NCBI GenBank assembly: GCA_964570935.1
Contig: CAZMZP010000075.1
Location: 19,173-83,172 of the forward strand
Direction of reading: 5' to 3'
Origin: an uncultured bacterium
GTDB taxonomy: Bacteria; Eisenbacteria; RBG-16-71-46; JAFGJU01
DNA: 64,000 nucleotides
Shown: piece by piece, positions 8,527 to 35,395 of the stretch
Position numbering within the stretch: the stretch's first letter is position 1
How the letters are laid out: each line of letters begins with the position of its first letter
The notes under the pieces: model-generated
Database searches by the model: none
The model's input: the letters and a program-made list of their open reading frames with translations, nothing else
Told to the model about the DNA's origin: nothing
Program-made: the position numbers and the translations under genes

Positions 8527-8552
8527 CATAGAGGGGTAAAGGAGGTTAAGAC

Positions 8553-9215
8553 ATGCGCAAACAGGTCCCACTGCTTCTGACGTTTTGCGCAGGGATGATT
8601 CCGATCATTGCGCTGTTTGTGCCGGAGAGACACGTCAGCACCGTCAGCACGACGCTGGACTCCTGGCTGATAATAGTCGCCGGATTCGCCCTGCTGCTGG
8701 GTGTCGTGAACGTCATCCAGATGAACACGAACAAGATAAAGAGAAGAAGTTCGGGCTGGCCTTACGCCATCGTGCTTCTGGCGGGGCTGGCAATAATGGG
8801 CACCTTCGGGTTCGCGGGCGCCTTCGGTGGGTTCGGCGGGATCGTCACCCGCCCGGACGGCACGTCCACGCCGTTCGACTGGCTGTACCAGAACGCGTTC
8901 CTTCCGCTCCAGGGCACGATGTTCGCCCTCCTGGCCTTCTTCATGGCCAGCGCCTCGTACAGGGCGTTCCGGGCCAGGAACGTGGAGGCCACCATTCTTC
9001 TCGTCGCGGCCCTCATCGTGATGTTTGGGCGGATTCCGTTCGGCGAGATGATCTCCAAATGGTGGCCGCTCACGACGGAGTGGATCATGGCCAGGCCCAA
9101 CATGGCCGCGCAGCGCGGCATCATGATTGGAGCCGGGTTGGGCGCGGCCTCGATGGCTCTCAGAGTGATTGTAGGAATCGAACGGTCGTACCTTGGGCTT
9201 GGCAAAGGCGAATAG
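8553..9215 (+). CDS. Uncharacterised multi-pass membrane protein (module gene B)
   Basis: AAAGGAGG RBS; about 6 TM segments; GTMFALLAFFMASASYRAFRARN. Confidence 0.8.
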   Translation: MRKQVPLLLTFCAGMIPIIALFVPERHVSTVSTTLDSWLIIVAGFALLLGVVNVIQMNTNKIKRRSSGWPYAIVLLAGLAIMGTFGFAGAFGGFGGIVTRPDGTSTPFDWLYQNAFLPLQGTMFALLAFFMASASYRAFRARNVEATILLVAALIVMFGRIPFGEMISKWWPLTTEWIMARPNMAAQRGIMIGAGLGAASMALRVIVGIERSYLGLGKGE

Positions 9216-17769: not shown

Positions 17770-17792
17770 TCGACTTTATGCCGCAAGAAATG

Positions 17793-17821
17793 TGGACATG
17801 GCTGTGCGGCTGTGCCATAAT
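17793..17821 (+). promoter_or_regulatory. Putative sigma70 promoter of the cytochrome c operon
   Basis: TGGACA-17 nt-CATAAT with extended TG; palindrome TCAGA-GTGAT-TCTGA at 17821-17835. Confidence 0.55.
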
Positions 17822-18004
17822 CAGAGTGATTCTGACCTGAAGTCCTGGCGACACCCTGCCGCGGAACGTCGGATTCATTCCCCCCCTCGTGCGTCTGACT
17901 TTGTAGATGTTCCCGTTCACCGGCGTGGGCCGGTGAGCAGGGTAAGGTCCGGATTCCGTCGAGGTCGTCCGAGCGGTTCCCAAGAGGAGGAGGTAGGCAG
18001 ACAG

Positions 18005-18583
18005 ATGGTAAGATCAAGGTTCTCTTGCTGGACTCTGGCCCTTTCAGTCCTGATCGCGATGGTGTGTGTGGGTCTGGCTGCTGCGGCTGACGAGGCAAAG
18101 ACGGCCGCGACGCAAGCCAGCGCGGATGCCGCGAAACCGGCGGCCGCACCCGCAAAGGCGCAGAAGCACGCGTACGCGGGCCTGGCCAAGTGCAAGATGT
18201 GTCACATGGCCATCTTCAAGGCCTGGTCGGCGACCCCGCACGCCAAGGCGTTCGCCGCGCTGGACAGCACGAAGAAGCAGGACCAGGACCCCAAGTGCGT
18301 CAAGTGCCACGTAACTGGTTTCGAAAAGGGCGGATACACGATCGGAAAGCCCGCCACGGCAGGCTTCAAGGGAGTCCAGTGCGAAGCGTGTCACGGACCG
18401 GGCGCCGACTACATGAAAGTGATGAAAGACCCCGTCAAGGCGAAAGCGGCCGGCATGATCACTCCAACGCAGGAAGTGTGCGTGGGATGCCACAGCAAGG
18501 AAAGCCCGACCTTCAAGGGCTTCGACTACGCTGCGTACCTGGCCAAGGGTGTGCACAAGGTCCCGAAAGAAACCAAGAAATAG
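18005..18583 (+). CDS. Exported tetraheme cytochrome c (c554-like)
   Basis: GAGGAGG RBS; signal peptide; CKMCH, CVKCH, CEACH, CVGCH. Confidence 0.9.
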   Translation: MVRSRFSCWTLALSVLIAMVCVGLAAAADEAKTAATQASADAAKPAAAPAKAQKHAYAGLAKCKMCHMAIFKAWSATPHAKAFAALDSTKKQDQDPKCVKCHVTGFEKGGYTIGKPATAGFKGVQCEACHGPGADYMKVMKDPVKAKAAGMITPTQEVCVGCHSKESPTFKGFDYAAYLAKGVHKVPKETKK

Positions 18584-18599
18584 CGTCTATAAGAATCGC

Positions 18600-20069
18600 A
18601 TGAGAAATCTCGAGGAGGGAAGCCTGGGAAACTCGGAACGAAGATCCGCGTTGTCTTCATTGAACTCGTTTCTTGGCTCGTCAAGATTCGGGCTTATCCT
18701 GCTTCTCGTACTGGGATGCGTTTCCCTCCTCGGGATGTTCATCCCCCAGAACGCTCCGCCCGAATTATACGTCTCCCGTTACGGGCAGGCGTTCGGCAGC
18801 CTCGTTCAACTCACGGGCCTGGGCACCGTATACAGGGTCTGGTGGTACCTTCTACTCATAATCCTTGTTCTCATCAATCTTGTTGTCTGCTCGGCCGGAA
18901 GGATCCGGAGGAGCTTCAGGCAGGCCTTCTCCAGGCCTAGGGCCCAGGACAACGAGCTGCTTCAGAACACGAGACCGGTTGAGCTGGACGTGGAACCGGC
19001 GCTCCTGCATGATTCCCTGGCGCGCCGGCTGCGCGCGAAGGGATATTCTATCGACTCGTCCGTGAACGGTCCCGTAAGCCTGATCGCGGCCCAGAGGGGC
19101 ACGGTCTCGCGAATCGGATTCCTCGTCACCCATCTCTCCATAATAACCATACTGGTGGCCGGAGCCATCAATGGCAGGCTGGGTTACAGGCACCAGCAGA
19201 ACGTCAGGATAGGCGAATCGTTCGCCGTCGGAGAAATCGAGCCGGGCGCCGATTTTGACGTCAGGCTGGACGATTTCCAAATCGAGACCACCGAGACCGG
19301 ACGTGTCCGGGACTACAAGTCCGTTCTCACAGTCATGGAGGGCGGAAGAGAAGTAGTTACGAAGACGGTGGAAGTGAACCATCCTCTTATCCACGGCGGC
19401 CTTGGCTTCTTCCAGGCCAGCTACGGCCAGGACCCCTCCGCAATCAGGGACGCCCGCCTTTTCTACAGCGAGAGCGCGTTCGAAGCCGCGGACGAGAGCG
19501 GGTCTCCACACGGCGAGACTCCGCCCGTGGAGCTGACCCTGCAGTTTCGTCAGAAGGCTCCGGTGCCGGGCACCGACCTGGAGGTCGTCATCACGGACTA
19601 CGTGCCTCATTTCGTCAAGGACCTGGCCACGGGCGTGGTGTCGAGCCGTTCGGAGGAGCCGCAGCTGCCCGCGGTCAAGCTCGACGTGCTTCAGGACGGT
19701 AACGTGGTGGACAGCGGCTGGCTCATCGAGGGAATGGACTTTCACTCGAGAGACACCCTGCTCGGCCGTTTCCATTTTGCCTGGTACACTCCGCTCTTCT
19801 ACGCGGGGATAGACGTGACGAAGAACCCGGGCGTTTCTCTGCTCTTCGTGGGGTTTGCGGTGGCGAGCGTAGGCATCTTTCTTTCGTTCTTCGTCCCCTG
19901 GGAGAGGATTTGGATCAAGATAGACCAGCATGGCTCCGGTCGCAGCCAGGTGAGGATAGCGGGGACCTCCAGCAAGGGGCAGGCCGGGTTCAAGCGCCGG
20001 ACGGAGAGACTTCGCGAATTCGCTGCGGAAACAACGGGGCGGGAGAAAGGAGACGAAGGTGGCAGGTAA
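18600..20069 (+). CDS. resB: Cytochrome c biogenesis protein ResB/Ccs1 (System II)
   Basis: LGMFIPQN, GFLVTHLSII, VEVNHPL, FFQASYG, PGVSLLFVGF. Confidence 0.9.
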   Translation: MRNLEEGSLGNSERRSALSSLNSFLGSSRFGLILLLVLGCVSLLGMFIPQNAPPELYVSRYGQAFGSLVQLTGLGTVYRVWWYLLLIILVLINLVVCSAGRIRRSFRQAFSRPRAQDNELLQNTRPVELDVEPALLHDSLARRLRAKGYSIDSSVNGPVSLIAAQRGTVSRIGFLVTHLSIITILVAGAINGRLGYRHQQNVRIGESFAVGEIEPGADFDVRLDDFQIETTETGRVRDYKSVLTVMEGGREVVTKTVEVNHPLIHGGLGFFQASYGQDPSAIRDARLFYSESAFEAADESGSPHGETPPVELTLQFRQKAPVPGTDLEVVITDYVPHFVKDLATGVVSSRSEEPQLPAVKLDVLQDGNVVDSGWLIEGMDFHSRDTLLGRFHFAWYTPLFYAGIDVTKNPGVSLLFVGFAVASVGIFLSFFVPWERIWIKIDQHGSGRSQVRIAGTSSKGQAGFKRRTERLREFAAETTGREKGDEGGR

Positions 20070-20859
20070 CGACGTTGTGTTGTTCTGGGTGGCTCTGCTG
20101 GGGTACTTGGGCGCCAGCGTGCTCTACGTTCTTCAGATCGCTGTCAGCAGGAAATGGTTCGGCACCGCTGCGTTCGTGGCGCTGGTCGCCGGCTTCGTTT
20201 CTCACTCGGCGGCGATAGTCCTGCGCTACGTGGCGACAGGCCATCCCCCCTTCACCGGAATGTACGAGTACGCGTCGTGCCTCGCCTGGGCGACAGTGCT
20301 TTTCTATCTCATTCTCCAGGCCGGTCACAAGGCCCAGAACCTCGGAGTGTTTGTCTCCCCCCTCGCGTTTGCCGTGATTGTGGTCGCGTCGCTGTTTCCC
20401 AAAGAGGCGGAGAGCCAGCTCGTCCCCGCGCTGCAGAGCTATTGGCTGCAGATACACGTGACTATGGCGGTGCTCGGAGAGGGGGCCTTCGCCGTGGCCT
20501 TCGCGACCAGCATAATGTACCTGGTCAAGGAACGAGGCGTGAAACCCCTCCCCTCGCTCGAGACGCTCGACGACCTCACCTACAGGGCCATCGTGATCGG
20601 CTATCCACTCTTCACGCTGGGGGCGCTGTTCGCGGGCGCCATCTGGGCCTGGAAGGCGTGGGGCACCCCCTGGAGCTGGGACCCCAAGGAGGTGGGCTCC
20701 CTCGTGGTGTGGATAATATACTCCGCCTATCTGCACGCGCGCGTGACGGCGGGGTGGCGGGGACGGCGTGCCGCCGTGCTCTCGATAGTCGGGTTCTCAG
20801 CCACAATCTTCACGTTCCTCAGTAATCTATTCATAGGCGGGCTGCATTCCTACGCCTGA
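20059..20859 (+). CDS. ccsA: Cytochrome c synthase CcsA/ResC (System II)
   Basis: GTG start overlapping resB; GHPPFTGMYE, LQSYWLQIHV, WSWDPKE (WWD domain). Confidence 0.93.
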   Translation: MAGNDVVLFWVALLGYLGASVLYVLQIAVSRKWFGTAAFVALVAGFVSHSAAIVLRYVATGHPPFTGMYEYASCLAWATVLFYLILQAGHKAQNLGVFVSPLAFAVIVVASLFPKEAESQLVPALQSYWLQIHVTMAVLGEGAFAVAFATSIMYLVKERGVKPLPSLETLDDLTYRAIVIGYPLFTLGALFAGAIWAWKAWGTPWSWDPKEVGSLVVWIIYSAYLHARVTAGWRGRRAAVLSIVGFSATIFTFLSNLFIGGLHSYA

Positions 20860-21042: not shown

Positions 21043-22698
21043 ATGAGAGAAGCAGGCGTTCTCACCGGCGTTGTCCGGTCGTCCCGTCTCAACAAAGTTC
21101 CGGCATCGGCGCTCGTGGCCTTCTGTCTGGTGTGGGTCGTCGTCGCGGCGGCCGCGCCGGCGTGGTCTCAGACCGGGACTGTCGCAGAGCCTCCGGCCGA
21201 CGATGACTGCCTGATGTGCCACGCGCCTGGGCAAGTAGCTCCCGCGGCGGACGCTCGGACGATCAGGGCCTCCGCTCACAGAGGGCTTGCGTGCGCGGCG
21301 TGCCATTCCGCGGTGACGGAGCTGCCTCACGCGGACGAGGTCGCGCCCGTCACGTGCGCGGGCTGCCACGCCGAAGAAGCCGAGCAGTACCTGTCGCGGG
21401 GACACGGCCTCACGCTGGCGGAAGGCAGGACGCAGGCCGAGGCCTGCGGAGACTGCCATGGCGAGCCCCATTCGATCATCCCGGGGATGAGCCCCCATTC
21501 GCCCATCAACAGAAACCACGTTGTGGAGACCTGCGGCAACTGCCACGGCGACGTGGCGGAGGAGCTGGTGGCCGGCGCGCACGGCGCCGCTGCCGGGTCC
21601 GGCGCGGCGGACGTGCCGGTCTGCACTGACTGCCACGGAACGCACCTGATACTGCCCGAGACAGACCGTTCGTCGCCAGTGTTCCACACCGCGGTCGCGA
21701 GGACGTGCGCCGTCTGCCACGCCGACAAGGAGATGGCCACGAGGCACGGCCTCAAAGCCGACGTCGTGAAGACCTACAACGAGAGCTTCCACGGCCTGGC
21801 TCTTCAGTACGGCTCAACGCTGGCCGCGAACTGCGCCTCGTGCCACGGCTATCACAAGGTCCTTTCTCCGGACGACCCCGCGTCGCCCGTCAACAAGGCC
21901 AACCTTGAAGAGACCTGCCGGAAGTGTCACCCCGGCGCCGGGCCCAAAGTCGTCTCTGGCAGCGTTCACTCCTCCCCGCCGCAGAGTACGACGCCGGTGG
22001 TCAAGTATGTGGCCATCATCTACATGATACTCATAGCCTTCACCATTCTGGGCATGGTCGCTTACGACACCCTCGATTTCCTGAGGCGGGCCATCGACCG
22101 GGTCTGGAACAGAAAGGCAGCCCGGAAGATCTACGGGTCGCGGGTCTCCCAGAAAGTGCAGTACGGGCTGCTCGTCGCGAGCTTCGCCGTGCTGGCGTAC
22201 ACCGGATTTGCGCTCAACCGCCCGTACTCGTGGTGGACCGCGCCGCTCCGCTCGTTCGACAACCCTTCCGACGCCCGGGCTCTCATACACAGAATTGCCG
22301 CCGCGGTGTTCCTGGCCGTCTGCCTGTATCACATTCTAGAAGCCAACCTGACGAAGAGGGGCAGGGAGCAGGCCAGGGCCCTCAGGCCAGGCCTCAAGGA
22401 CTTCAAAGACCTTCTGGTCCAGCTCAAGTACAATTTCGGTTTCTCCAAACAGCGTCCGGCGTTCGGCAGGTACGACTACGTCGAGAAAAGCGAGTACTGG
22501 GCCATGGCCTGGGGAACTGCGGTCATGACGTTGACGGGCTTCCTCCTCCTGGCCGAGAACGTGACTTTGAGACTCTTCCCGCTCTGGGTGTCGGAGCTGG
22601 CCACGGGAGTCCATTTCTTCGAGGCCGTGCTGGCGGGACTTTCGGCGATTGTGTGGCACGCTTACTGGACCGTGTTTGATTCCCACGGGCACAAATGA
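21043..22698 (+). CDS. Nonaheme cytochrome c fused to FdnI-type cytochrome b (CbcL-like)
   Basis: GGAGGTG RBS; signal peptide; nine CxxCH (CLMCH, CAACH, CAGCH, CGDCH, CGNCH, CTDCH, CAVCH, CASCH, CRKCH); then TM helices with IHRIAA, EKSEYW, VHFFEA...WHAY. Confidence 0.88.
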   Translation: MREAGVLTGVVRSSRLNKVPASALVAFCLVWVVVAAAAPAWSQTGTVAEPPADDDCLMCHAPGQVAPAADARTIRASAHRGLACAACHSAVTELPHADEVAPVTCAGCHAEEAEQYLSRGHGLTLAEGRTQAEACGDCHGEPHSIIPGMSPHSPINRNHVVETCGNCHGDVAEELVAGAHGAAAGSGAADVPVCTDCHGTHLILPETDRSSPVFHTAVARTCAVCHADKEMATRHGLKADVVKTYNESFHGLALQYGSTLAANCASCHGYHKVLSPDDPASPVNKANLEETCRKCHPGAGPKVVSGSVHSSPPQSTTPVVKYVAIIYMILIAFTILGMVAYDTLDFLRRAIDRVWNRKAARKIYGSRVSQKVQYGLLVASFAVLAYTGFALNRPYSWWTAPLRSFDNPSDARALIHRIAAAVFLAVCLYHILEANLTKRGREQARALRPGLKDFKDLLVQLKYNFGFSKQRPAFGRYDYVEKSEYWAMAWGTAVMTLTGFLLLAENVTLRLFPLWVSELATGVHFFEAVLAGLSAIVWHAYWTVFDSHGHK

Positions 22699-25385
22699 AC
22701 GGCTCGCGAGACATTCCGCCCGGTGAGTCCGACGCGTCGGCGCCGGGCCCGACGTCGTCGACCGCGTCTGGGCCGGCCGCTCCCGAAGCCCCCGGTCAGC
22801 GCGCGGTGGAAGAGGGTGTCTCCGGGTCGCTGACAACACTCGTCCTCCTCCTTCTGGGGTTCACGGCTACGTCCGGCCAGATCTTCCTCCTGCGTGAATT
22901 CATAAGCACGTTCCACGGCAACGAGCTCGTCATCGGCGTATATCTGTCCGTATGGCTGCTGGCGACCGCCGCGGGCAGCGGTCCGGCGTACGCGTTCCTG
23001 GCGCGACGAACCGGCCGCGGAGCGCGCACGCCGGGCTCTCTCCATTCCGCCGGTCCGGAGACTTCGCTGCTTCTCCGGTTCGCGGTCGTCGAGGCGCTCG
23101 CCGCCGGAGGACTTCTGTTCGCGGTCGTTGGTCTGATGGCGCCTCCGGCGCAGCTGAGGCCGTCCCCCGGGGAAGTGGTCGGGCTGGTGAGCGCCCTGGC
23201 GTGCTCGGCCGTGTTCTTGTTTCCGTTCTGTGTCTTCCAGGGACTTCTATTCCCGCTGGGGGCCGCGTTGGTACGGAGTCGCGGACGCCGTGCGGGCCCG
23301 AACCCGGCAGGCGGGGAAGAGGGTGCGCCCGAACGCGCGGCACGAAACGTGATAACCGGGCGCGCGGCGTCCGTGTCGCGCGTTTATTTCCTGGAGGCGG
23401 CCGGCGCCGCCGCGGGAGGTCTTCTGCTCAGTCTTCTGCTGGTCCGTCTACTCGGCTCCTTCAGGATTGCGTCGGCCCTGGCTTCGCTCAACTTGTTTGC
23501 GGCGGCCGCGGTCGCGTACTCCGCGTCAAGAGCCGCCGGCGCCGTGTCCACGGGGCCGGCCGCGTCCTTGGAGCCCGGGGTCGAAGCCCCCGCCCGCCCG
23601 CTTGCGAGGCCGCGGCTGAGCCGGTGGCTGTCGTGGGTCCTTGCCTGCCTCTGCGGGGTCTCACTCGTCGTGTGTGTTCTGGACCCTGTCACCGGCAGAA
23701 CCGCGTCGCTCAAGTGGGGAGGCCTGACAGTGCGGGAGGTCAGGCAGTCGCGTTACGGCAACCTCGCCGTCCTGTCAGTTGACTCGCAGTACTCCGTCTA
23801 CCAGGATGGGCTCCTCGTCGCCACCACGGACGACGTCCAGTCTTCGGAAGAAATCGGCCATATACCCATGCTCGAGCATCCCCGGCCCGAGCGCGTCCTG
23901 CTGATCGGTGGAGGAATCGGCGGCGTCGTGCGCGAGATGCTGAAGCACCCATCTCTCGTCCGGCTCGATTACGTTGAGCTGGACCCCGACCTGATAGCCT
24001 TGGCCCGAGACGTCCTGCCGCGGGAGAAGGTGGCGGACTTGAGCGACCCGCGCGTGAGAGTGCTGTACCAGGACGGACGGCGGTTCCTGCAGACAACTGC
24101 CGAGCGCTACGACCTCGTGACGATGCAGGTTCCCCCTCCGTACACGGCACAGTTCAACAGATTCTACACGCATGAGTTCTTCGGACTGGTGCGGCGTCAT
24201 CTGAGGCCGGGTGGAGTGTTCGCCTTCGCCCTGCCGGAGGTGAAAGAATACGTCTCCCGGGAGCTGGCCTCGTTCCTGGCCGCGCTCGTTAGGACCGCCG
24301 CCGGCGAGTTCAGGACGGTGGTTCTTGTGCCGGCCAGCCGTAGTCTCCTGGTGTGCTCTCCTGACCAGAACGACTACGTCGTCGCGTCGCCAGACTCTCT
24401 GGTGGACCGCCTGGCCGCCCGGGGAGTGGTTACGCTGTTCGTGAGGGACTATTTCCTTTCGGCCACGCTGTCCCCGGACAGGCTGAGGTACGCGGAAGAG
24501 CGGGTCAGGGCACAGGACGGCCGCGTAAACACGGACTTGCGGCCGATAGGGTTCTACTATGACCTCGTGCTGTGGAGCGCGGAATACGAGCGGGTCGCGG
24601 CCGTGGGTCTGAGATGGGTATTCGCGCACGCGTGGGTGGTCTGGGCCGCGGCGGGCGCCCTGGCCGCGGCGCTCTTGCTCCCGGCCGTGGGCAGCCGCTC
24701 CCGGGCGCGCGGCGCGCTTCTGCCGTCGGCCCTGGCCGTGTCGGGCTTCGCGGCCATGGTGCTGGAGCTCGAGATAGTGCTCTGCTTTCAGCTCCTGTAC
24801 GGGAATCTGTACGACAGGATAGGGATACTGTTCACCGCCTACATGGTCGGACTGGCGGCGGGGGCGTGGACTGAGAGGCGGTGGAAATCCGGGCAGGAAG
24901 ACGCCGCCGGCGGGGGCACGCTGTCACTCGCGCTCACGCGGCCTGCCGTGCTGCAGTTCCTGACCGCCGGTTTCGCGGCTTGCTTCCTGGTCCTGGTCCA
25001 TTTTGCACCGCGAAGCGGAGTGCCGGCTGCGAGGGCGTTGCTCGAATGGCTGTTCCCGCTGCTTTCGGGCGTGGCAGGCGGGTTGGGAGGGGCCTTCTTC
25101 AGCTCGGCCGGCAGGGCGTACTTTGACCGCTCCGGCGGGCGCCGCCAGCGCGTGCAGACTGCCGGTGCCGGCTACCCGGACGTTGGGCTGGGTGCCACCT
25201 ACGCTTGGGACCTGGCGGGCTCCTGGGCCGGCGCAGTTCTCACGAGCTCGATTCTGTTTCCGGTGGTGGGGGTGCTGGTCGCCACGAGCGTGGTCGGCGG
25301 TCTGCTCGTAGCTTCCGGATGTGGACTGGTCCTGGCCGCACGCCGCGCTCAGCCCCATACGCCAGCAATCGGGCCCCCGCAGTAG
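22695..25385 (+). CDS. Multi-TM protein with central spermidine-synthase-like SAM-binding domain
   Basis: ATGA overlap with upstream gene; GQIFLLREF...GNELVIG; VLLIGGGIG, YVELDP, DGRRFL; TM blocks on both sides. Confidence 0.82.
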   Translation: MNGSRDIPPGESDASAPGPTSSTASGPAAPEAPGQRAVEEGVSGSLTTLVLLLLGFTATSGQIFLLREFISTFHGNELVIGVYLSVWLLATAAGSGPAYAFLARRTGRGARTPGSLHSAGPETSLLLRFAVVEALAAGGLLFAVVGLMAPPAQLRPSPGEVVGLVSALACSAVFLFPFCVFQGLLFPLGAALVRSRGRRAGPNPAGGEEGAPERAARNVITGRAASVSRVYFLEAAGAAAGGLLLSLLLVRLLGSFRIASALASLNLFAAAAVAYSASRAAGAVSTGPAASLEPGVEAPARPLARPRLSRWLSWVLACLCGVSLVVCVLDPVTGRTASLKWGGLTVREVRQSRYGNLAVLSVDSQYSVYQDGLLVATTDDVQSSEEIGHIPMLEHPRPERVLLIGGGIGGVVREMLKHPSLVRLDYVELDPDLIALARDVLPREKVADLSDPRVRVLYQDGRRFLQTTAERYDLVTMQVPPPYTAQFNRFYTHEFFGLVRRHLRPGGVFAFALPEVKEYVSRELASFLAALVRTAAGEFRTVVLVPASRSLLVCSPDQNDYVVASPDSLVDRLAARGVVTLFVRDYFLSATLSPDRLRYAEERVRAQDGRVNTDLRPIGFYYDLVLWSAEYERVAAVGLRWVFAHAWVVWAAAGALAAALLLPAVGSRSRARGALLPSALAVSGFAAMVLELEIVLCFQLLYGNLYDRIGILFTAYMVGLAAGAWTERRWKSGQEDAAGGGTLSLALTRPAVLQFLTAGFAACFLVLVHFAPRSGVPAARALLEWLFPLLSGVAGGLGGAFFSSAGRAYFDRSGGRRQRVQTAGAGYPDVGLGATYAWDLAGSWAGAVLTSSILFPVVGVLVATSVVGGLLVASGCGLVLAARRAQPHTPAIGPPQ

Positions 25386-26557
25386 GCGCAGCGTCCCCGC
25401 GACACTTTCATTTCGAGGATGGAATAGCCGGCGCGCTTGACGACCGGCTTCGTGCATTTGGGACAGTAAGTGTGCTCCGCCTCGTGTCCGGGCACGTTGC
25501 CGATGTAGACGTAGTTGAGCCCGGCGCCCTTCGCGATCTTCCAGGCCCTCTCCAGGGTCGATATCGGAGTCTGCGGCAGCTTCTTCATCTTGTAGATGGG
25601 GTAGAAGCGCGAGAAATGGAGCGGCACGTCGGGCCCGAGCTGCTTGGCCACCCACCTTGCCATGGACGAGAGCTCCGAGTCTCCGTCGTTTAGCGTCGGA
25701 AGCACCAGGTACACTATCTCGTACCACACGCGGGAGTTCTTAAGCAGGACCAGTGTGTCCAGCACCGGTTTCAGCGTGGCGTCGCAGACATCCTTGTAGT
25801 ACTTCTCCGTGAACGCCTTTAGGTCAACCTTCACGGCACCGAGGTGCCTGCAGGCCTCCAGCATGGGCTCCCGGTTGATGTAGCCGTTTGAGACCATGAC
25901 CGTCTTGAGCCCGGAGCGGTTTCCCAGCGCCGCCACGTCCATCATGTACTCAACAGCGACGACGCCCGGCTCGGAATACGTGAAGGCCACGGTGGACGCG
26001 GACGCCCGCCTGGCCGCCTCCACGGTCTCCTCCGGCGGCAGATAGTAGTTCTCCGTCTGCTCGGGCCTGGCCTGCGACATCTCCCAGTTCTGGCAGAACT
26101 TGCAGTCCATGTTGCAGCCGGCCGTGCCCAGAGAGAAAGACTTGGTGCCGGGCAGATAGTGAAAGAACGGCTTCTTCTCGATGGGGTCGACGTGGACGGC
26201 GCACGGAAGCCCGTGGCCGAGCGAGTAGTAAACGCCGCGGCGGTTTTCCCGGGCGCCGCAGTAACCCCTTTCAATGTCGCCCACCCTGCACTTCCTGGGG
26301 CAGACCTGGCATTCCACCTCCATCTCGGGAAGCTTCTTGTAGAACGACGCCTCCCTGGGTGGGGTCTGCCGCACGGGTTGTGCGCTGGCGCCCTGCTGAG
26401 CGAACGCGGCGCCTTCGGCGGCGCCGGAACCGAGGCGAGATCCCCCCGGGCCGGAAAACGGGAACGGAACTGGCGAAGAGGCCGGCGCCAGCGACGCGCC
26501 CAGGGCGCCGCCGGAGATCATTCCAAGTTTCTTCAGGAACTTCCTGCGGCCGCGCAT
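25349..26557 (-). CDS. amrS: AmmeMemoRadiSam radical SAM enzyme with Tat signal
   Basis: CQVCPRKC, RGYCGAREN, VDPIEKKPFFH, GCNMDCKFCQN (CxxxCxxC), FTYSEP, C-terminal CPKC/CAYC; N-terminal GRRKFLKK. Confidence 0.92.
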   Translation of the reverse strand: MRGRRKFLKKLGMISGGALGASLAPASSPVPFPFSGPGGSRLGSGAAEGAAFAQQGASAQPVRQTPPREASFYKKLPEMEVECQVCPRKCRVGDIERGYCGARENRRGVYYSLGHGLPCAVHVDPIEKKPFFHYLPGTKSFSLGTAGCNMDCKFCQNWEMSQARPEQTENYYLPPEETVEAARRASASTVAFTYSEPGVVAVEYMMDVAALGNRSGLKTVMVSNGYINREPMLEACRHLGAVKVDLKAFTEKYYKDVCDATLKPVLDTLVLLKNSRVWYEIVYLVLPTLNDGDSELSSMARWVAKQLGPDVPLHFSRFYPIYKMKKLPQTPISTLERAWKIAKGAGLNYVYIGNVPGHEAEHTYCPKCTKPVVKRAGYSILEMKVSRGRCAYCGGPIAGVWG

Positions 26558-27594
26558 CACGCCACCTCCAGATTGAGGACGTCGATGCCCGCGCGCTCCG
26601 ACACTCCGAGCCCGAGTGCGGAGGCCGCCGCCAGGTACCCGGGGTAGCGACCCTCCTCGCGGAACGTCCTCAGCCCGGCAGATTTTCTCAGCCTGTCGGT
26701 CTCTTCCAGACACACCGTGTCCAGAGCCACCGGGTCGGTGGAGACCAATATGCCGCCGAATTCCGTCGTCCACCTGGGCTTGTAACCTGGACCGCCGTGC
26801 ACCTGCACCCTCACGGCGTCACATACGTTGAGCCGCGTCTTCCTCCTTATCGCCGGGTGCGAATTCACGTCGGCCACGAAAGGAGAGCATCCGTTCGCAT
26901 GATACTTGTTGGGGTTGTGGATTGCCCCGTAGTTGTTCTTGAGCGCGGCCGAGACGCCGGCCAGGGAGTGCTCTTTCAGGACGGGCACGTTTATTATCGC
27001 GGTCGCCGTCTCGGTCACTATCCTGGAATAGCATGACCCGATTGACCCCAGCTCCGTCGGGAAGGTCTCGTAGCCCGCGGACGGAGCGTCCGTCCCGAAA
27101 CAGCGCGGTCCGTCCCCGGAGAAGTTGACCGCGAACCCGGCGGACCCGAGCTCGCGCGTGGTCCTGTCCCACACGAGGATGTTCTTTCCGCTAAGCCCGC
27201 AGGACATGAGGTTCTTCGTGATGGCGGCGACCAGAAGAGGAGACGTGGAGAGGGTCTTTCCGTTTATCGCGTTCACCTTGATTGCGACCACGTCTTCGGC
27301 GGAGAAGAGAGCTGCCCAGGCGTCGTCCGTTCTGGCGGCCCCGGTGAGGCGCCTCATGGAGGCGTCCAGGACCGCCTTGTAGAAGGCCGCCGGGTCGGAG
27401 GCGCCGCCGGTCTTTCTGGCAATCAGCACCAGGGCTCTTGCCGCACCTGCGGGTCGGGTCGCGGACGCTGCGCCGCCGGGCGCGGCACGGCCGAGGCCGG
27501 GGAACAGACCCACTCCCAGACCCGCCGCCACTGCCAGGGATCTTGTGACGAAGTCTCTTCGCGTGATGCGGTCGCGGCCGCCTGGCTTGCTCAT
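26557..27594 (-). CDS. DUF362-like protein with Tat signal
   Basis: TRRDFV signal; VAIKVN, INVPVLKEH...GVSAALKN, TDPVALD; stop overlaps amrS ATG. Confidence 0.82.
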   Translation of the reverse strand: MSKPGGRDRITRRDFVTRSLAVAAGLGVGLFPGLGRAAPGGAASATRPAGAARALVLIARKTGGASDPAAFYKAVLDASMRRLTGAARTDDAWAALFSAEDVVAIKVNAINGKTLSTSPLLVAAITKNLMSCGLSGKNILVWDRTTRELGSAGFAVNFSGDGPRCFGTDAPSAGYETFPTELGSIGSCYSRIVTETATAIINVPVLKEHSLAGVSAALKNNYGAIHNPNKYHANGCSPFVADVNSHPAIRRKTRLNVCDAVRVQVHGGPGYKPRWTTEFGGILVSTDPVALDTVCLEETDRLRKSAGLRTFREEGRYPGYLAAASALGLGVSERAGIDVLNLEVA

Positions 27595-27601
27595 GCGGCC
27601 C

Positions 27602-29191
27602 TCACTTCCTCTGCACTTCCCCTTCAGAGAACACTTCCGCCGTGAAAAGGTACACGTCCGCGTCCTTCTTCCAGGCGTCGGCCTCGAGCCCCGCTTTCTC
27701 GAGGCAGCAGTGTCTCAGGAACTCCTCCTTCGACCACCCGGTCTCGTCGGCCACCTGGGGCAGGTAGCAGCCGCCCCTTCCGCCCTTCATCACGTATATG
27801 CCGTGCTTCCCCAGCTCCAGCTCGCTTACGTCGCCCATCTTGCGCAGCGGGGACAACACCGATATCTCTATCTCGACCTTGTCCAGCTCCGGCAGCGTCA
27901 CCGGCGGGAACCTGGAATCCTGCGTGGCTGCCGACACGGCCATCTGCGAGACCACCTTGTACAGCGGCTCGTCCGCGGTGAACCTTCCAATGCAGCCCCT
28001 GAGCTGCCCGTCCCTGTGCAGCGTAACGAACGCACCCTGGTGGCCGGTGAGAGATGGATCAGTAAGCTTGAAGTCGGGCAGGGGCTTTCTTCTCAGGATC
28101 GCGTCGATGGAGACTCTGGCGACCGACAGCAGCTTCTTCCTGTCCGCCCTGCCCAGAGTCCCTTCGCTCATGGCCGCGGCCGGCTTTGGGACGGCCGCTT
28201 CCGGCGAAGGCCTCTTGCCGGCGCCGCCCCCGGAGCTCTCGTAGATCGCGGCTGCCGCGTAACCCACCACTCCGGTCTTGTCCCCGGACACGTCGCCCGA
28301 GTTGGCGTACTTGAGCACGGTTACGGCGTCCGCGCCCAGGGCCTTGCAGGCCGCCATCGTGATCATTACGGCCGCGCTGCCGCACATCGTGACGGCCAGG
28401 TTCTGCGCGGGTCTTCGCATGGTCGCCTCTTCCTTCGCGTACATCGTTTCCAGGTTCATCGTCTTCCATGATTCGACGGTCTCGCGGTCCACCCTGTTGG
28501 CGTCGTCGTAGGCCGGGTAGTGCGACAGGTCCGAGCTGGCCACGAACAGTGCCTTCCTGCCCTTGACGGCGCCGGCCAGAGCGCGTCCGAGCTCCTCGCA
28601 GCGGTCGGGCGGAAGGTCTCTCGTGACCACGGGAACTATCTTGAAGTCTTTCAGCACGCGCTGCAGGAACGGAAGCTGGACCTCCAGGGAGTGCTCCGCG
28701 ACGTGCGCGCCCGGGTCGTCCGTGAAGTCGCCACCAAGACTCACGATGGCACTGGCCAGGCTCTCGTCTACGGGGACGCTGCCGAGAGGGGTGCTGAAGC
28801 TTCCCGACGTGTATACCGCGGCCGCCTCCACGGGTGCTCTGTGAGAGGGTCCTATCAGTATCACGACGTCATAGTCCGCGCCGCGCACTGCGGAGAAGGC
28901 GTAGGCGGCGACCTGCCCCGAATACGCGTAGCCCGCGTGCGGAGAGATTATGCCGATTACCCGGCCCGGTACACGGGTCTCGGGCGTGTCCGCGCTCTTC
29001 AGGAATTCGTCCACGACGCGCCCCAGCTCCGAGGCCCCTCCGGGGTAAAACGCTCCCGCTACGGCCGGTCTTCTCACCTGGGCCACCTCCTTCCGAGCAG
29101 TTTCAGAAGTTCCGGAGCTGGAACAGGCCGACAGGACGGCCAGGCCCAGCGCCGACAGCATCACGGCAGAATGAAACCTGCGCCTCTTCAT
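27602..29191 (-). CDS. amrB: AmmeMemoRadiSam protein B (MEMO1) - protein A (AMMECR1) fusion, predicted lipoprotein
   Basis: RRPAVAGAFYP, PHAGYAYSG, EHSLEVQLPFL, SSDLSHY (MEMO); GAFVTL, LRGCIG, EISVLSP, YLPQVA (AMMECR1); lipobox LSAC. Confidence 0.92.
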   Translation of the reverse strand: MKRRRFHSAVMLSALGLAVLSACSSSGTSETARKEVAQVRRPAVAGAFYPGGASELGRVVDEFLKSADTPETRVPGRVIGIISPHAGYAYSGQVAAYAFSAVRGADYDVVILIGPSHRAPVEAAAVYTSGSFSTPLGSVPVDESLASAIVSLGGDFTDDPGAHVAEHSLEVQLPFLQRVLKDFKIVPVVTRDLPPDRCEELGRALAGAVKGRKALFVASSDLSHYPAYDDANRVDRETVESWKTMNLETMYAKEEATMRRPAQNLAVTMCGSAAVMITMAACKALGADAVTVLKYANSGDVSGDKTGVVGYAAAAIYESSGGGAGKRPSPEAAVPKPAAAMSEGTLGRADRKKLLSVARVSIDAILRRKPLPDFKLTDPSLTGHQGAFVTLHRDGQLRGCIGRFTADEPLYKVVSQMAVSAATQDSRFPPVTLPELDKVEIEISVLSPLRKMGDVSELELGKHGIYVMKGGRGGCYLPQVADETGWSKEEFLRHCCLEKAGLEADAWKKDADVYLFTAEVFSEGEVQRK

Positions 29192-29197
29192 GCCTTC

Positions 29198-29206
29198 ATT
29201 TTACCA
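29198..29206 (-). promoter_or_regulatory. Extended -10 element 6 nt before the ATG (leaderless-type)
   Basis: Minus strand reads TGG-TAAAAT-GAAGGC-ATG. Confidence 0.55.
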
Positions 29207-29253
29207 CAATGCGGCGCGGCCGGCGCGGGAACCGTTCGGGCGCCCGGTGCGGT

Positions 29254-29748
29254 TCAGTCGAGGGTGCTTATCGTGAGGTCGGGCCGCTCGAGCAGTTGGA
29301 ATTCTATTCCGACTTCCCCGAGCAGAGTGAGGGCGTCCTCGTCGGGATAACTCCCGCAGGCCACCACTCTCTCTATCTTGGCGTTGGCGAGGATCTTCGC
29401 GCACAGTATGCAGGGGGTGTGGGTGCAGTAGAGTGTGCCCTTCTGGATGCTGATTCCGTGAAGTCCGGCCTGTATGACGGCGTTCTGCTCAGCGTGGATC
29501 GCCCTGCAGACCTCGTGGCGCTCGCCGGACGCTATTCCTTTCGCGTCCCGGAGGCACCCGAGCTCCAGGCAGTCCTTCACTCCGGACGGGGCCCCGTTGT
29601 AGCCGGTCGTGAGGAGACGCTTCTCCTTCACTATCACGGCGCCGACGTGGTGACGCGTGCACGTCGAGCGTTCGGCCACGAGGAAGGCGATCTTCATGAA
29701 ATACTCGTCCCACGGGATTCTCGGGTGCCGCTGCCGGGGGGCGTTCAT
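29254..29748 (-). CDS. dCMP deaminase (ComEB-like)
   Basis: WDEYFMKIA...RSTC, TGYNG, HAEQNA, PCILCAK. Confidence 0.9.
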   Translation of the reverse strand: MNAPRQRHPRIPWDEYFMKIAFLVAERSTCTRHHVGAVIVKEKRLLTTGYNGAPSGVKDCLELGCLRDAKGIASGERHEVCRAIHAEQNAVIQAGLHGISIQKGTLYCTHTPCILCAKILANAKIERVVACGSYPDEDALTLLGEVGIEFQLLERPDLTISTLD

Positions 29749-31010
29749 CAGACCTCCTTTAGCTCGAGCTCGTGCTCGGGAAGGCGTGCGACGTCCGCGT
29801 GTCTGAAGAAGAGGTAGTACAGACAGCTTGCCACCACGTACAGCACTATCGCAACAACAAAAGACGGGACGTAGGAGTGACGCTCGATGAGAATGCCGCC
29901 CCACTGAACGCTCACGGCCCACGACGCGGTCCAGGCCAGCATCAGCATGCTGTTCGTGACGGCGTGCTCCTCCTTCCTGACCGACTCCATTGCGAAGTGG
30001 GTCGACAGCGGCTGGTTCATGTTCATCAGGGCGCCCCTCATCAGGAACGCGAACACCACGACGGGGAAGGACCTCGAGAAACAAAGGGCGAGCATGAACG
30101 GGATCGACGCGAGCTGCGTGACGACCACGCTTCTCATCAGCCCGAGCCTCGGCACGAACAGCGGCCCCAGGAGGGTGCCGGCGGTCATGAAGCACTGCAG
30201 GAGCGCGAACAATATGCCTATGGTCTCGGCCGACGCCCCGAAGAGGTCCCTGAAATAGAGGTTGAGGAACGGGATGATGAGGCCCGCGCCTATGCCGATT
30301 ATGAAGGCGGGCACGCACAGCTTCGCGATCAGCTTCCAGTCGGTCTTTCGAAGGTTTGCCAGGAACTGCGAGTGGGCTCTGACGTCCGGCCTCTCCTCCA
30401 CGATGGACATGAACGGAAGGGCGGAGAGAGTCATGACGATGACGCCGGCCAGGAGGGAATACCTGAACTGCTCCCCCGGCGACTGGGTGAAGTAGGAAAA
30501 CGCCCTGGGCAGGAAGCCGCCTATCAGACTCCCGACGAGCGCGCCCGCGGTGCTGACGGCGAAGTTCATGCTGAAAAGGTAAGTTCGCTCCTTCTCGCTG
30601 CTGTGCCGCATGAAGAACGGCGCGGACGCCACCCTGAACACCGCTATTCCGATTCCGGCGATGAACCCGGCCACCACTATCGCGTCCCTGTTGCCGGTGA
30701 GCACTTGGAGAGCGTAGCCGACCGCCATCACCAGCGTCGCAAACGTGAGGGCGGACCTGAAGGTGAACCGCCCGAGCAGAAGGCCCAGCGGAAGCGCCAG
30801 GATTACCGGGGCGAGGGACGTTCGGGACAGCACCTTTCCGATGTAGGATTCGGAGAAGCCCAATTCCTTGAAGTACAGGTTGAGGAGGAGCGAGAACATG
30901 GACGCGCCGGTCCATATGAGGAGACTGCCCAGAAGGAACGCTCTCGCGTTGGGAGGAAAAAGTCTCAGATGGGCGACGTAATCCCTGGTTCCTGCAAGGA
31001 GCTTGTTCAG
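29748..31010 (-). CDS. MFS transporter (start uncertain, possibly CTG)
   Basis: About 12 TM segments; LNLYFKELG, PFLNLYF; stop overlaps the deaminase ATG. Confidence 0.85.
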   Translation of the reverse strand: MNKLLAGTRDYVAHLRLFPPNARAFLLGSLLIWTGASMFSLLLNLYFKELGFSESYIGKVLSRTSLAPVILALPLGLLLGRFTFRSALTFATLVMAVGYALQVLTGNRDAIVVAGFIAGIGIAVFRVASAPFFMRHSSEKERTYLFSMNFAVSTAGALVGSLIGGFLPRAFSYFTQSPGEQFRYSLLAGVIVMTLSALPFMSIVEERPDVRAHSQFLANLRKTDWKLIAKLCVPAFIIGIGAGLIIPFLNLYFRDLFGASAETIGILFALLQCFMTAGTLLGPLFVPRLGLMRSVVVTQLASIPFMLALCFSRSFPVVVFAFLMRGALMNMNQPLSTHFAMESVRKEEHAVTNSMLMLAWTASWAVSVQWGGILIERHSYVPSFVVAIVLYVVASCLYYLFFRHADVARLPEHELELKEV

Positions 31011-31597
31011 TTCGTGTCTCTCTTCGCCACCACCGTGGCGTTGAAGCGTATCAGAGTCGCCACCCCCGTGACTGCCTGCGCGCTGCCGGAAGCGTCGAAT
31101 CTCATCCTTATGCCCACGCGGCATTCATCGGACGTAAGGAGCTCCCCTAGCTTCTCGTCTCCCCTCACGGTCACGTGGAGCGTGTCGGTGACTCCGGACG
31201 CCAGGTGGAGCAGCTCGGATTCGACGTACATGTCCGCGGGGATGTTGTCCGTATACGGCGCGGTCAGGGTGTCCGCCACGAACACCATGAACACGATGTC
31301 GGCGGAACCTGTCTGGTTCGCGAATTCAGAACTGATGTAGAGGTCCACGTACTCCACGTCGGCAAGGTCGGAAAGCCCCTCGGACAGGTTCAGTTCCTGC
31401 GGGTCCGAGTCTATGACCACCGGCAGCGGCGCCCCTGCCGGGATGGGCGGGTCGTCGCCGTACGTCTGCGTGACGGTCTCCGCGTCCATGAAGCTCAGCA
31501 CGTCCACGTTCATCGTCAGCGTACGGTCGCCGCAGCCCGGCGCGAGCAGGAGCGAGGAAAGCGAGACCGCGAGAATTGCCAGAGTTGTTCTTCTCAT
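31007..31597 (-). CDS. Hypothetical lipoprotein
   Basis: MRRTTLAILAVSLSSLLLAPGC lipobox; beta-rich mature part. Confidence 0.7.
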   Translation of the reverse strand: MRRTTLAILAVSLSSLLLAPGCGDRTLTMNVDVLSFMDAETVTQTYGDDPPIPAGAPLPVVIDSDPQELNLSEGLSDLADVEYVDLYISSEFANQTGSADIVFMVFVADTLTAPYTDNIPADMYVESELLHLASGVTDTLHVTVRGDEKLGELLTSDECRVGIRMRFDASGSAQAVTGVATLIRFNATVVAKRDTN

Positions 31598-33239: not shown

Positions 33240-35177
33240 TCACTTCAGTATCACCATCTTCGTCTCTGCAACGTTGTCCTTCGTGAACAGCTTGCAGAAG
33301 TAGACGCCCGAAGAAACAGCGCGTCCCGCGTTGTTCCTTCCGTCCCAGGTGGCCTTGTGCTTGCCCTGGTCCATGACGCCCTGGTACAGAGTCTTCACGA
33401 GCCGGCCGGACACGTCGTAGACGCCCATGTCCACCTCGCCCTTCTCGGGCAGAGAGAACGTGATGGTCGTCACCGGGTTGAACGGGTTCGGGAAGTTCTG
33501 CTCCAGCGCGAACACTACCGGCGCCGCGGGCGTCACCGGGTCCACTCCGATCACGTTGACGAGGTCGATGTCCGCGTCCCTGCGGGGCTCGATTCTGAAG
33601 TCATCGTAGATGTAATCGATGGGACCGCAGATGTTCATCCACACGCCCGGAGTCGGTATGTACGTGTAGTTGCCGTTGTGGCCGACCATGGCCGTGTCGA
33701 GGGAGCCGTAGGTGTCGGCGACTTTCCACTCACCGAACTGGTCGAAGCCGACCGTGTCGGCCACGAAGACCGGGTCGCAGCGCACGAAGACGCCCTCGTA
33801 GGATTCGGCAGTCGCGGCGCCGGTCTTGATGAGCGCGGGGTCGACGTGCGCGGGTCCGGGCAGGGAGTTGCCTGAGCTGTGAACCGCGAGGTAGTCGAGT
33901 CCGGTGATCTCGGTCTTGTAGAAGTACTCGCTCACGTACCCCGACACGACTATGCTGTCACCTTCGGCAATCGGAGTGGGCGGACCACCGTAGATCTGAA
34001 CTCCGCTCCACGGGCCACCAGGACGCGTTTCCACGTAGAAGTGGGTGATGTACGGCCCGGTGTCGGCAGTAACGATTCCGGCAACGGTTACCTGCTGGGT
34101 CGTGAGCGCGGAGCTGTCGTTGTCCACGGCCTTCATCGCCTGCACCACCGAGATGGGCGTCAAGCCGCCCCTGAAGGCGTAGGTCTGCGGCTGCGGCATT
34201 ATCGTGCCGGGACCCTTGCTCTTCACCCCGGCTACGGTCAGTTCCTCGGCCGTTCCGCCGACCTGCGTTCCGGTCGTCAGGGTCACAATCTGCTCGCCCA
34301 CGAGGTCGAGGGTAGCCGACAGGACCTGCACCCCGGAACCTAGGTAGTAGTTGTTTATGTTCTCAGCCGTAGCTTCGTCTACTCTCACGTCAAACGCCGC
34401 GTTGATACCGGTGTTGGAAATGGCATAGGCTAGAGACAGGTTTGGCGCCGGCGGAGCGCCAGAGTAGACGATGTCATCAGCGTTCCTCGGACAGATGTGG
34501 TATCTGCTGTTCTCGTAGTGGCCGATACCAGCTATAGACGTCAGCACTGTGCCGATAGGCGGCGGGGCGGGCCCGGGGCTCACCATCTTGTTGGTCCTGC
34601 AGTACATGGTCGTCGTATCGGTCGAAGGGGCATTCTGCCTGAACCAGAAGCTCGTCAGAGGATACGCTGGGTCGATGCCCGTGACTACCACGTCCTGGAA
34701 CCTGATGAGAGTGCCTTCCCACTGCTCCGCAGTTGCGTAAGCGTACGGCCGCATACCGAACTGATTGCACTGTAGCAGCTTTGGCGCCGGCACGATCATG
34801 CTGTCCACTATCGTCCAGGCGAGCGGGCTGTAGATCAGCTCCGAGCCCGACAGCGAGTCGTGGACTCCGGAGGGATACTCCAGGTACCTGATGGAGTCTA
34901 TCGTCACCACGTGACCCACCCTCAGGCCGCCTGTAGACGTGCTGCCCGTGTAGACCTGGATACCACCGTACGGACCACCGGACTTCTGCTGCGCCCAGTA
35001 GCCGTAAGTGCTCACGTAGTCGATGCCGGTTACCACAACCGTGTCGACCCTGACGATAGTGTTCTGCGGATACACAAGCTGCTGAATCTCGTATATCGTC
35101 GCCAGGGTCGCTGCCGACGCCACGCCCGCGGTGACAAACAGCAGCGCAACGACCATTGCTAGAACTCGTCTTTCCAT
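33240..35177 (-). CDS. Secreted protein with repeated OB-fold-like modules, Ig-like segment and C-terminal FlgD-Ig/CTD
   Basis: AGAAGGAGG RBS; signal peptide ending ASA; TIYEIQ and TPISVVQ...VTVAGIVTA modules; QNFPNPFNP...YDVSGRLV...SSGVYF tail. Confidence 0.82.
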   Translation of the reverse strand: MERRVLAMVVALLFVTAGVASAATLATIYEIQQLVYPQNTIVRVDTVVVTGIDYVSTYGYWAQQKSGGPYGGIQVYTGSTSTGGLRVGHVVTIDSIRYLEYPSGVHDSLSGSELIYSPLAWTIVDSMIVPAPKLLQCNQFGMRPYAYATAEQWEGTLIRFQDVVVTGIDPAYPLTSFWFRQNAPSTDTTTMYCRTNKMVSPGPAPPPIGTVLTSIAGIGHYENSRYHICPRNADDIVYSGAPPAPNLSLAYAISNTGINAAFDVRVDEATAENINNYYLGSGVQVLSATLDLVGEQIVTLTTGTQVGGTAEELTVAGVKSKGPGTIMPQPQTYAFRGGLTPISVVQAMKAVDNDSSALTTQQVTVAGIVTADTGPYITHFYVETRPGGPWSGVQIYGGPPTPIAEGDSIVVSGYVSEYFYKTEITGLDYLAVHSSGNSLPGPAHVDPALIKTGAATAESYEGVFVRCDPVFVADTVGFDQFGEWKVADTYGSLDTAMVGHNGNYTYIPTPGVWMNICGPIDYIYDDFRIEPRRDADIDLVNVIGVDPVTPAAPVVFALEQNFPNPFNPVTTITFSLPEKGEVDMGVYDVSGRLVKTLYQGVMDQGKHKATWDGRNNAGRAVSSGVYFCKLFTKDNVAETKMVILK

Positions 35178-35395
35178 CTCTCCTCCTTCTAAGAAACAAG
35201 TCACATCGGATGGATTAGCGTGTGCCAAATCAAGATTGGGTCCAGAATCACCTCCGTTCGAACACAAAGAATTTCTAATACACTTAGCCGTCAGCAGTGA
35301 CGGTGAAGCCACCCTCGCGGTCGGGCACGAAGCCCGCCCCTCGATGGCAGTTCCGTCACCGGAACAGCTTGCAACTTACGCAATTAGCTAGGCTA

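Follow-up and report, generated by a model that had tools for sequence, protein, structure and literature searches.

Export signals on every product of an AmmeMemoRadiSam operon suggest an extracytoplasmic version of the system in an uncultured Eisenbacteria bacterium

In a 64,000-nucleotide (nt) stretch of the genome of an uncultured bacterium of the Eisenbacteria (GCA_964570935.1, contig CAZMZP010000075.1, positions 19,173 to 83,172; this whole stretch is called the window below), three minus-strand genes that together occupy 25349-29191 encode an AmmeMemoRadiSam system in which each product has an N-terminal signal. They correspond to a fusion of MEMO (AmrB) and AMMECR1 (AmrA) with 529 amino acids (aa) (27602-29191), a DUF362 protein of 345 aa (26557-27594), and the radical S-adenosylmethionine (SAM) enzyme AmrS, of 402 aa (25349-26557). 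We suggest, with a probability of about 0.65, that the AmmeMemoRadiSam system of this operon works outside the cytoplasm, with an exported AmrS acting together with its partners at the membrane. The conservation of these signals in relatives from many phyla makes it probable that radical SAM chemistry occurs outside the cytoplasm. The superfamily of radical SAM enzymes, among the largest of all enzyme superfamilies, is regarded as strictly cytoplasmic. MEMO and AMMECR1 are conserved from bacteria to humans, AMMECR1 being a disease gene, and we know of no biochemical function established for either. A conserved clade of exported enzymes would extend radical SAM chemistry to a new compartment, raising the questions of extracellular SAM and of low-potential electrons, and an exported version would narrow the possible substrates of MEMO and AMMECR1. 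New handles on the function of both would come from the LarA-like DUF362 protein, a SAM-fold membrane protein, and flavin or cytochrome donors.

AmrS matches TIGR04337 with 365.2 bits (cut-off 220), the profile match beginning only at residue 71, and PF04055 with 62.7 bits. The radical SAM motif CxxxCxxC (C148/C152/C155; 26093-26116, minus), assigned with PF04055, is invariant in an alignment of 14 AmrS sequences from different phyla, which are 52-57% identical to the window protein except for two close relatives at about 70%. Two further Cys sets (C83/86/90/100 and C365/368/390/393) are equally invariant. The fusion is well above the cut-offs of TIGR04336 (MEMO, 277 bits, cut-off 26) and TIGR04335 (AMMECR1, 176 bits, cut-off 99), contains PF01875 and PF01871, and has invariant MEMO metal-site residues (H85, H117, H167, D221, H224, and C270) and an invariant AMMECR1 LRGCIG motif (residues 397-402). 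The DUF362 protein matches PF04015 with 84.3 bits (gathering cut-off 24). The A and B proteins are fused and encoded two genes upstream of AmrS, and the system shares with the canonical one (TIGR04337/TIGR04335/TIGR04336) the families above cut-offs, the adjacent genes, the intact radical SAM Cys residues, the MEMO metal site, and LRGCIG. By every testable criterion it is a member of AmmeMemoRadiSam, set apart by its predicted compartment, the A-B fusion, and two added partners, DUF362 and a 14-helix SpeE-like protein. Canonical AmrS, on the other hand, has about 335 aa and lacks an N-terminal extension (the form of 58 of 150 family representatives), and triple fusions of about 1000 aa that have no signal are likewise cytoplasmic, while every component encoded here carries an export signal, as originally predicted and now confirmed by family matches and N-termini.

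The genes are tightly coupled, also as predicted. A 7-nt gap (27595-27601) separates the fusion gene from the DUF362 gene, and in the sequence TGATG the DUF362 stop and the AmrS start share 1 nt, with GGAGG about 8 nt upstream of the AmrS ATG. A longer version of AmrS, a 474-aa open reading frame (ORF) starting with GTG at 26773, was rejected as a mechanical call that runs inside the DUF362 gene; the ATG at 26557 is the gene start. A promoter and terminator scan returned no promoter-like sites at 25000-29800 and one terminator at chance level. No second, signal-less amr set was found within the 64-kb window. The operon is present in sediment, soil, and groundwater metagenomes, habitats that are plausibly anoxic, and no RNA run was found to contain the locus. 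Genes for a dCMP deaminase and a major facilitator superfamily (MFS) transporter lie directly upstream on the same strand (29254-31124, minus), and L081 and L083, two relatives within Eisenbacteria, show the same synteny; 62 bp separate these genes from the fusion gene, and co-transcription is possible.

Signals and topologies were assigned with our own hydropathy and motif rules. The AmrS N-terminus (MRGRRKFLKKLGMISGGALGASLAPA, followed by SS) has a signal of the twin-arginine translocation (Tat) type at residues 1-26 (26480-26557, minus), composed of MRGRRKFLKK and LGMISGGALGASLAPA with predicted cleavage before S. It includes G-R-R-K-F-L-K in a positively charged n-region and an AxA site (APA before S) picked by eye. 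The translation and the alignment bear out the predicted start with the full RRxFLK motif and the intact CxxxCxxC, but not the proposed cleavage at AFA-Q, which lies some 30 residues past the hydrophobic core. A24-P-A26, before S27, is likely the better-placed AxA site, and the flexible linker that follows it would be about 40 residues long. In the AlphaFold2 (AF2) model, residues 1-61 are disordered (predicted local distance difference test, pLDDT, below 50), and the fold begins at about residue 68. R4, R5, and F7 are invariant in the 14-sequence alignment, and the next 60 or so residues vary freely in sequence and length.

This N-terminus is widespread. An RRx[F/L] within the first 35 residues is found in 103 of the 120 best homologues of AmrS, and the remainder look N-terminally truncated. 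We also surveyed loci of about 20 kb from 80 species-level genomes, where about 68 of the 80 AmrS loci, spread over more than 10 phyla, have the RRxF motif and a weakly hydrophobic core. The taxa surveyed include Zixibacteria, Latescibacteria, Planctomycetota (anammox lineages too), many Acidobacteriota, KSB1, Caldithrix, Aminicenantes, Eisenbacteria, Omnitrophota, and others. Within the window, a lenient Tat pattern fits only 5 of 52 genes, two of them in this operon. The TAT_signal model gave no useful match at the three N-termini in a Pfam scan with E up to 10, whose speed filters lose short signal models.

The fusion starts with MKRRRFHSAVMLSALGLAVLSAC, and its signal peptide (residues 1-23; 29123-29191, minus) reads MKRRRFHSAVMLSALGLAVLSA before a Cys, with a hydrophobic N-terminus and the lipobox L20-S-A-C23. 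A strongly hydrophobic signal directly precedes the MEMO domain in 42 of 44 fusion loci and in 108 of the 120 best homologues. The lipobox Cys is present in 47 of these 120, including all close Eisenbacteria orthologues. On the other hand, RR is found in only 15 of the 108 homologues that bear a signal, the orthologues beginning with MKTHKF, MRKNTF, or MKDKKF. Thus, of the earlier proposal of a possible Tat lipoprotein, the lipoprotein signal stands and the Tat assignment does not, RR not being conserved and the core being Sec-like; the fusion is predicted to be a Sec-type lipoprotein processed by signal peptidase II (Sec/SPII). The public gene call of this protein (P0121, 519 aa) starts at Met11, without MKRRRFHSAV (29161-29191). 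We favor the longer start because the orthologues share a conserved basic n-region. A signal-less stand-alone AMMECR1 (L010, 10581-11147) or MEMO (L074, 9392-10279) is found close to the exported fusion in two loci, and therefore some genomes seem to hold both cytoplasmic and exported copies.

The cores of the two signals differ. The most hydrophobic 12-residue stretch has a Kyte-Doolittle mean of 1.71 in AmrS and 2.53 in the fusion (Mann-Whitney p = 5e-14). Tat signals are known to be less hydrophobic than Sec signals, so this gap matches a Tat-like AmrS and a Sec-like fusion.

The DUF362 protein carries ITRRDFVTRS at its N-terminus, in agreement with the predicted ITRRDFV...GRA. Its Tat-type signal (residues 1-37; 27484-27594, minus) reads MSKPGGRDRITRRDFVTRSLAVAAGLGVGLFPGLGRA before A, with the motif T-R12-R13-D-F-V-T and a GRA site before A picked by eye. 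RRxF is present in 94 of its 120 best homologues. The AF2 model has a pLDDT of 89, with low values at residues 26-44, and a Foldseek search of the PDB retrieved LarA-family nickel-pincer racemases as best matches, 7s91 at the top (E 5e-7, TM-score 0.45), a similarity at the fold level only. Sequence searches of the PDB, with the single sequence or a profile, gave no match. DUF362 and LarA share a Pfam clan (PMC11770544). Across 34 sequences the invariant residues are K106, H209, K219, H232, C236, D259, and D287. The suggested role of DUF362 as a Fe-S or redox partner is not supported, because C236 is the only invariant Cys and the model is LarA-like. An enzyme with a tightly bound cofactor seems more likely, and such a cofactor would explain the use of Tat.

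DUF362 also follows the type of AmrS signal. Its gene directly precedes AmrS in 39 of 60 loci with a Tat-type AmrS, against 0 of 9 loci where AmrS is Sec-like or has no extension. Several DUF362 proteins adjoining a Tat-type AmrS have no signal of their own, which would fit co-export as a complex. In Tat-exported Fe-S systems, signal-less partners may ride out with the signal-bearing one.

The signals could be annotation artefacts, with the true starts downstream of the RR motifs. There is an in-frame Met at AmrS residue 13, and the public call of the fusion starts at M11. Nevertheless, the protein sequences of different phyla share an invariant RR-x-F, and in many homologues there is no other start to choose. 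The AmrS ATG has its GGAGG and overlaps the preceding stop, and the shorter fusion start would still keep the hydrophobic core and the lipobox. We consider such an artefact very improbable: the starts lie upstream of the RR motifs, and the homologues keep their signals (AmrS, fusion, and DUF362 alike).

Exported status follows the relationships within the AmrS family. When the whole family was represented by clusters at 50% identity (1447 of them at E <= 1e-30), the nearest relatives of the window protein were those with signals, and the distant ones were ordinary cytoplasmic enzymes of 335 aa or triple fusions (about 1000 aa) that have no signal. The mapping of Tat and non-Tat forms on a phylogeny, proposed with the original prediction, shows clustering: on a crude tree (unweighted pair group method with arithmetic mean, UPGMA), the exported state requires 6 changes, compared with 36 (minimum 25) when labels are shuffled.

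Domain fusions in relatives bear on the side of the membrane where AmrS works. P0385 and P0403 have one N-terminal helix, followed by a flavin mononucleotide (FMN)-binding domain (FMN_bind, PF04205) and then AmrS, with no helix between the last two. Both FMN domains contain the ApbE flavinylation motif SGAT (DTVSGATQT and DAVSGATMS). ApbE-type FMN domains are flavinylated and work outside the cytoplasm (PMC8238504). With the FMN domain extracytosolic and no intervening helix, AmrS would therefore be on the same side of the membrane. A similar arrangement is found in L080 (Omnitrophota, 7376-8966), where a transmembrane (TM) helix, FMN_bind, and AmrS are split by a frameshift; the ORF with the TM helix and FMN_bind ends in KEAKYYKVLDE and a stop, these being the first residues of the AmrS domain. 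The frameshift is either an assembly error or a real feature. The interpretation of L080 as a signal-lacking locus was thus rejected. NapH/NosR-like Fer4_5 membrane modules are joined to AmrS in P0371, P0373, and P0389, and DsbD_2 modules in P0381, P0386, and P0389. In P0392 a signal, MEMO, AMMECR1, and AmrS form a single chain, and P0372 has the order TM helix, AmrS, MEMO, and AMMECR1; by their architecture, these fusions show that AmrS, MEMO, and AMMECR1 would stay in one compartment. P0366 and P0367 contain a signal, then a CBM_11/CIA30-like domain or a Reg_prop/PorZ-type beta-propeller, then AmrS, which hints at a glycan or cell-envelope substrate. The proposal of an extracytoplasmic, membrane-associated system has as much support as comparing sequences can give, from the signals across phyla, the Tat- and Sec-like cores, the clustered tree, and the FMN_bind-AmrS fusions.

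Another explanation is that the Tat-like N-terminus of AmrS is vestigial or binds a chaperone, as in NarG, and that AmrS stays at the cytoplasmic face, modifying MEMO-AMMECR1 or DUF362 before their export. In its favor, the SAM and the strong reductant that radical SAM enzymes require are both cytoplasmic, known radical SAM maturases of exported proteins act before export, and in L078 a signal-less AmrS is paired with a signal-bearing fusion. This explanation has to face the complete n-region, h-region, and AxA architecture of about 68 of 80 loci, whose hydrophobicity is typical of Tat signals, the position of AmrS directly after an extracytosolic FMN domain in P0385 and P0403, and the single polypeptide of P0392. 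Moreover, Omnitrophota swap the Tat motif for a Sec-like signal and keep the N-terminal extension. We regard a cytoplasmic AmrS of this kind as unlikely.

A Tat-exported AmrS could also keep its signal uncleaved as a membrane anchor, as Rieske proteins do, with the linker of about 40 residues holding the enzyme by the 14-helix protein and the lipoprotein. A long linker rich in Pro, Gly, and Ser follows the hydrophobic core, the model shows disorder at residues 9-61, the helix of several Omnitrophota forms is not followed by an AxA site, and the partner fusion would itself be a membrane-tethered lipoprotein. However, the hydrophobic core of the window protein is directly followed by A-P-A before S, and homologues often have AxA-like motifs; we regard a retained anchor as improbable. 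It is a variant of the exported system, not a contradiction of it.

Some observations weigh against export of AmrS through Tat, or against the system as a whole. Eight AmrS proteins (L055, L060, L068, L073, L074, L075, L077, and L079) have very hydrophobic N-termini with no RR (mean 3.05), in loci without DUF362 that belong to Omnitrophota or to one unclassified bacterial metagenome-assembled genome. An example of these N-termini is MKKSLLLLILLLSVLFPAIGADQ. They suggest a Sec signal or a signal anchor, and export through Sec is hard to square with an AmrS that bears several Fe-S clusters. AmrS has no N-terminal extension in L078 (3645-4634) and L071 (8028-8996), where the DNA upstream is AT-rich; in L078 the adjacent fusion (4893-6371) has a lipoprotein-like signal. 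We know of no periplasmic SAM pool and of no periplasmic reductant near -450 mV. The cytochrome genes next to the operon, which could supply electrons, are kept only within Eisenbacteria and may simply reflect shared ancestry.

Taking the exported system as the working model, AmrS would fold and receive its [4Fe-4S] clusters (the radical SAM site and two further four-Cys motifs) in the cytoplasm, and the folded enzyme would leave via the Tat pathway using its RRKFLK signal. DUF362, LarA-like and probably cofactor-bearing, would also be exported by Tat, its signal-less versions probably riding out with AmrS. The MEMO-AMMECR1 fusion would be exported via Sec and lipid-anchored at Cys23. These proteins would then act jointly on the outer face of the inner membrane, like the cytoplasmic triad does in its own compartment. 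Most likely, MEMO-AMMECR1 would hold a substrate, either a protein or a small molecule, from which AmrS abstracts a hydrogen, a reaction proposed because the nearest characterised relatives of AmrS are glycyl-radical activases.

A possible way of supplying electrons to an exported enzyme is indicated by the AmrS fusions. The electrons may come from periplasmic carriers: in this lineage the neighboring multihaem cytochrome c/b, and in others a covalently flavinylated FMN-binding, NapH-like, or DsbD-like module fused to AmrS. In the cytoplasm, radical SAM clusters are reduced by flavodoxin, an FMN protein, and by analogy we infer that a flavinylated periplasmic domain is its natural counterpart. 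SAM may be exported bound to AmrS, for a single turnover or with regeneration, or it may be supplied across the membrane, where the candidate supplier would be the conserved 14-helix protein, whose SAM-fold domain is predicted to face the periplasm.

That radical SAM chemistry operates in the bacterial periplasm throughout a clade of many phyla is a tentative proposal, to which we give slightly less than even odds. If true, it requires a SAM route across the inner membrane, with the 14-helix protein as candidate, and a periplasmic low-potential reductant in the role of flavodoxin, for which ApbE-flavinylated FMN domains and multihaem cytochromes are candidates. The substrate of the universally conserved MEMO/AMMECR1/AmrS triad would then exist outside the cytoplasm too, which argues against an exclusively RNA-directed role.

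We compared the system with others that share some of its features. Tat-exported Fe-S proteins (hydrogenase small subunits, DmsA/B, NapG, and Rieske proteins) have signals of the S/T-R-R-x-F-L-K type and need their clusters before transport, but none of them is a radical SAM enzyme, they have no need of extracellular SAM, and their electron partners are known. Glycyl-radical activases such as the pyruvate formate-lyase activating enzyme are the closest characterised relatives of AmrS by sequence (TIGR02493 at 2.9e-12; PDB 3c8f at 5e-6), and this relation suggests by analogy hydrogen abstraction from a protein substrate. However, AmrS is far below their cut-offs and has two extra four-Cys motifs, there is no glycyl-radical enzyme nearby, and the activases are cytoplasmic. 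Radical SAM maturases of exported proteins (QhpD, anaerobic sulfatase-maturating enzymes, and HXS) also tie a radical SAM enzyme to a periplasmic end product. For QhpD and the anaerobic sulfatase-maturating enzymes, the enzyme is cytoplasmic and only the substrate is exported. The same holds for the HXS system (PMC13128918), whereas here the enzyme AmrS itself bears the signal.

ApbE-flavinylated systems (NapH-like/NosR and DsbD-associated; PMC8238504) resemble the relatives in which AmrS is fused to FMN_bind with [S/T]GA[S/T], to Fer4_5, or to DsbD_2. They differ from the window, which has a cytochrome c/b beside the operon in place of an FMN_bind or NapH-like gene, neither of which was found next to it. 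Radical SAM enzymes go unmentioned in that 2021 survey of flavinylation (PMC8238504). No description of an exported radical SAM enzyme or of a signal-bearing AmrS was found in the literature searched, which left out Burroughs et al. 2019.

The SpeE-like gene (22695-25385, plus) is convergent with AmrS, overlapping its 3' end by 37 bp. It encodes a membrane protein with 7 TM helices, a spermidine-synthase-like (SAM-fold) domain (PF01564, 102.6 bits; NF037959, 43.5 bits, cut-off 40), and 7 further TM helices. Of the 44 loci with complete flanks, 27 have a homologue close to AmrS. The topology averaged over 26 homologues has 7 helices, a soluble domain at 329-648, and 7 helices. Its K/R-rich loops (95-130, 275-311, 666-679, and 726-754) are all on one side, opposite the soluble domain, so by the positive-inside rule the SAM-fold domain is predicted to be periplasmic.

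In the family motif GGG[IVA]GG of this protein, the Asp of GGGDGG is replaced, the residue that selects decarboxylated SAM. Residues 472-478 (24108-24128) read VTMQVPPPYTAQ/MQVPPP, where most relatives have IIV[DN]xPDPxTAQ, and both acidic residues of the aminopropyltransferase motif (DxPDP) are lost in the window lineage. With these motif Asp residues lost and the best equivalog reaching 126.9 bits (cut-off 472), a spermidine synthase or canonical aminopropyltransferase was rejected. Its predicted extracytoplasmic SAM-fold domain beside an exported AmrS makes the protein the best candidate for moving SAM, or a SAM-derived group, across the membrane, a role that we infer from its placement and topology.

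A multihaem cytochrome c-cytochrome b fusion (PF14522, PF01292, and PF14537) is encoded at 21043-22698 (plus). Both in the window, through ATGA, and in Eisenbacteria relatives with 70-73% identity, its gene is translationally coupled to the SpeE-like gene. Farther upstream in this string of genes (17792-20859, plus) Pfam identifies a cytochrome c554-like protein with ResB and CcsA, of system II cytochrome c maturation. The cytochrome c/b gene is syntenic in the Eisenbacteria L081 and L083, and the c554-like/ResB/CcsA arrangement in L083. By its position, the multihaem cytochrome could be a local periplasmic electron donor in this lineage. BLAST gave no match to it in 80 more distant loci, and we do not put it forward as a general component of the system.

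Elsewhere in the window, a TldD/PmbA-family metallopeptidase (10836-12365, plus) has the Tat-like N-terminus IPRRQFLRRTVKGGIVLVGAPVMASF and is followed by a signal-less paralogue (12393-13754). The two may form a Tat co-export pair of a peptidase usually held to be cytoplasmic. FlgD_ig domains are present in the products of 16346-17704 (plus), together with a matrixin-like peptidase domain, and of 33240-35312 (minus), together with a Por_Secre_tail of type IX secretion sorting.

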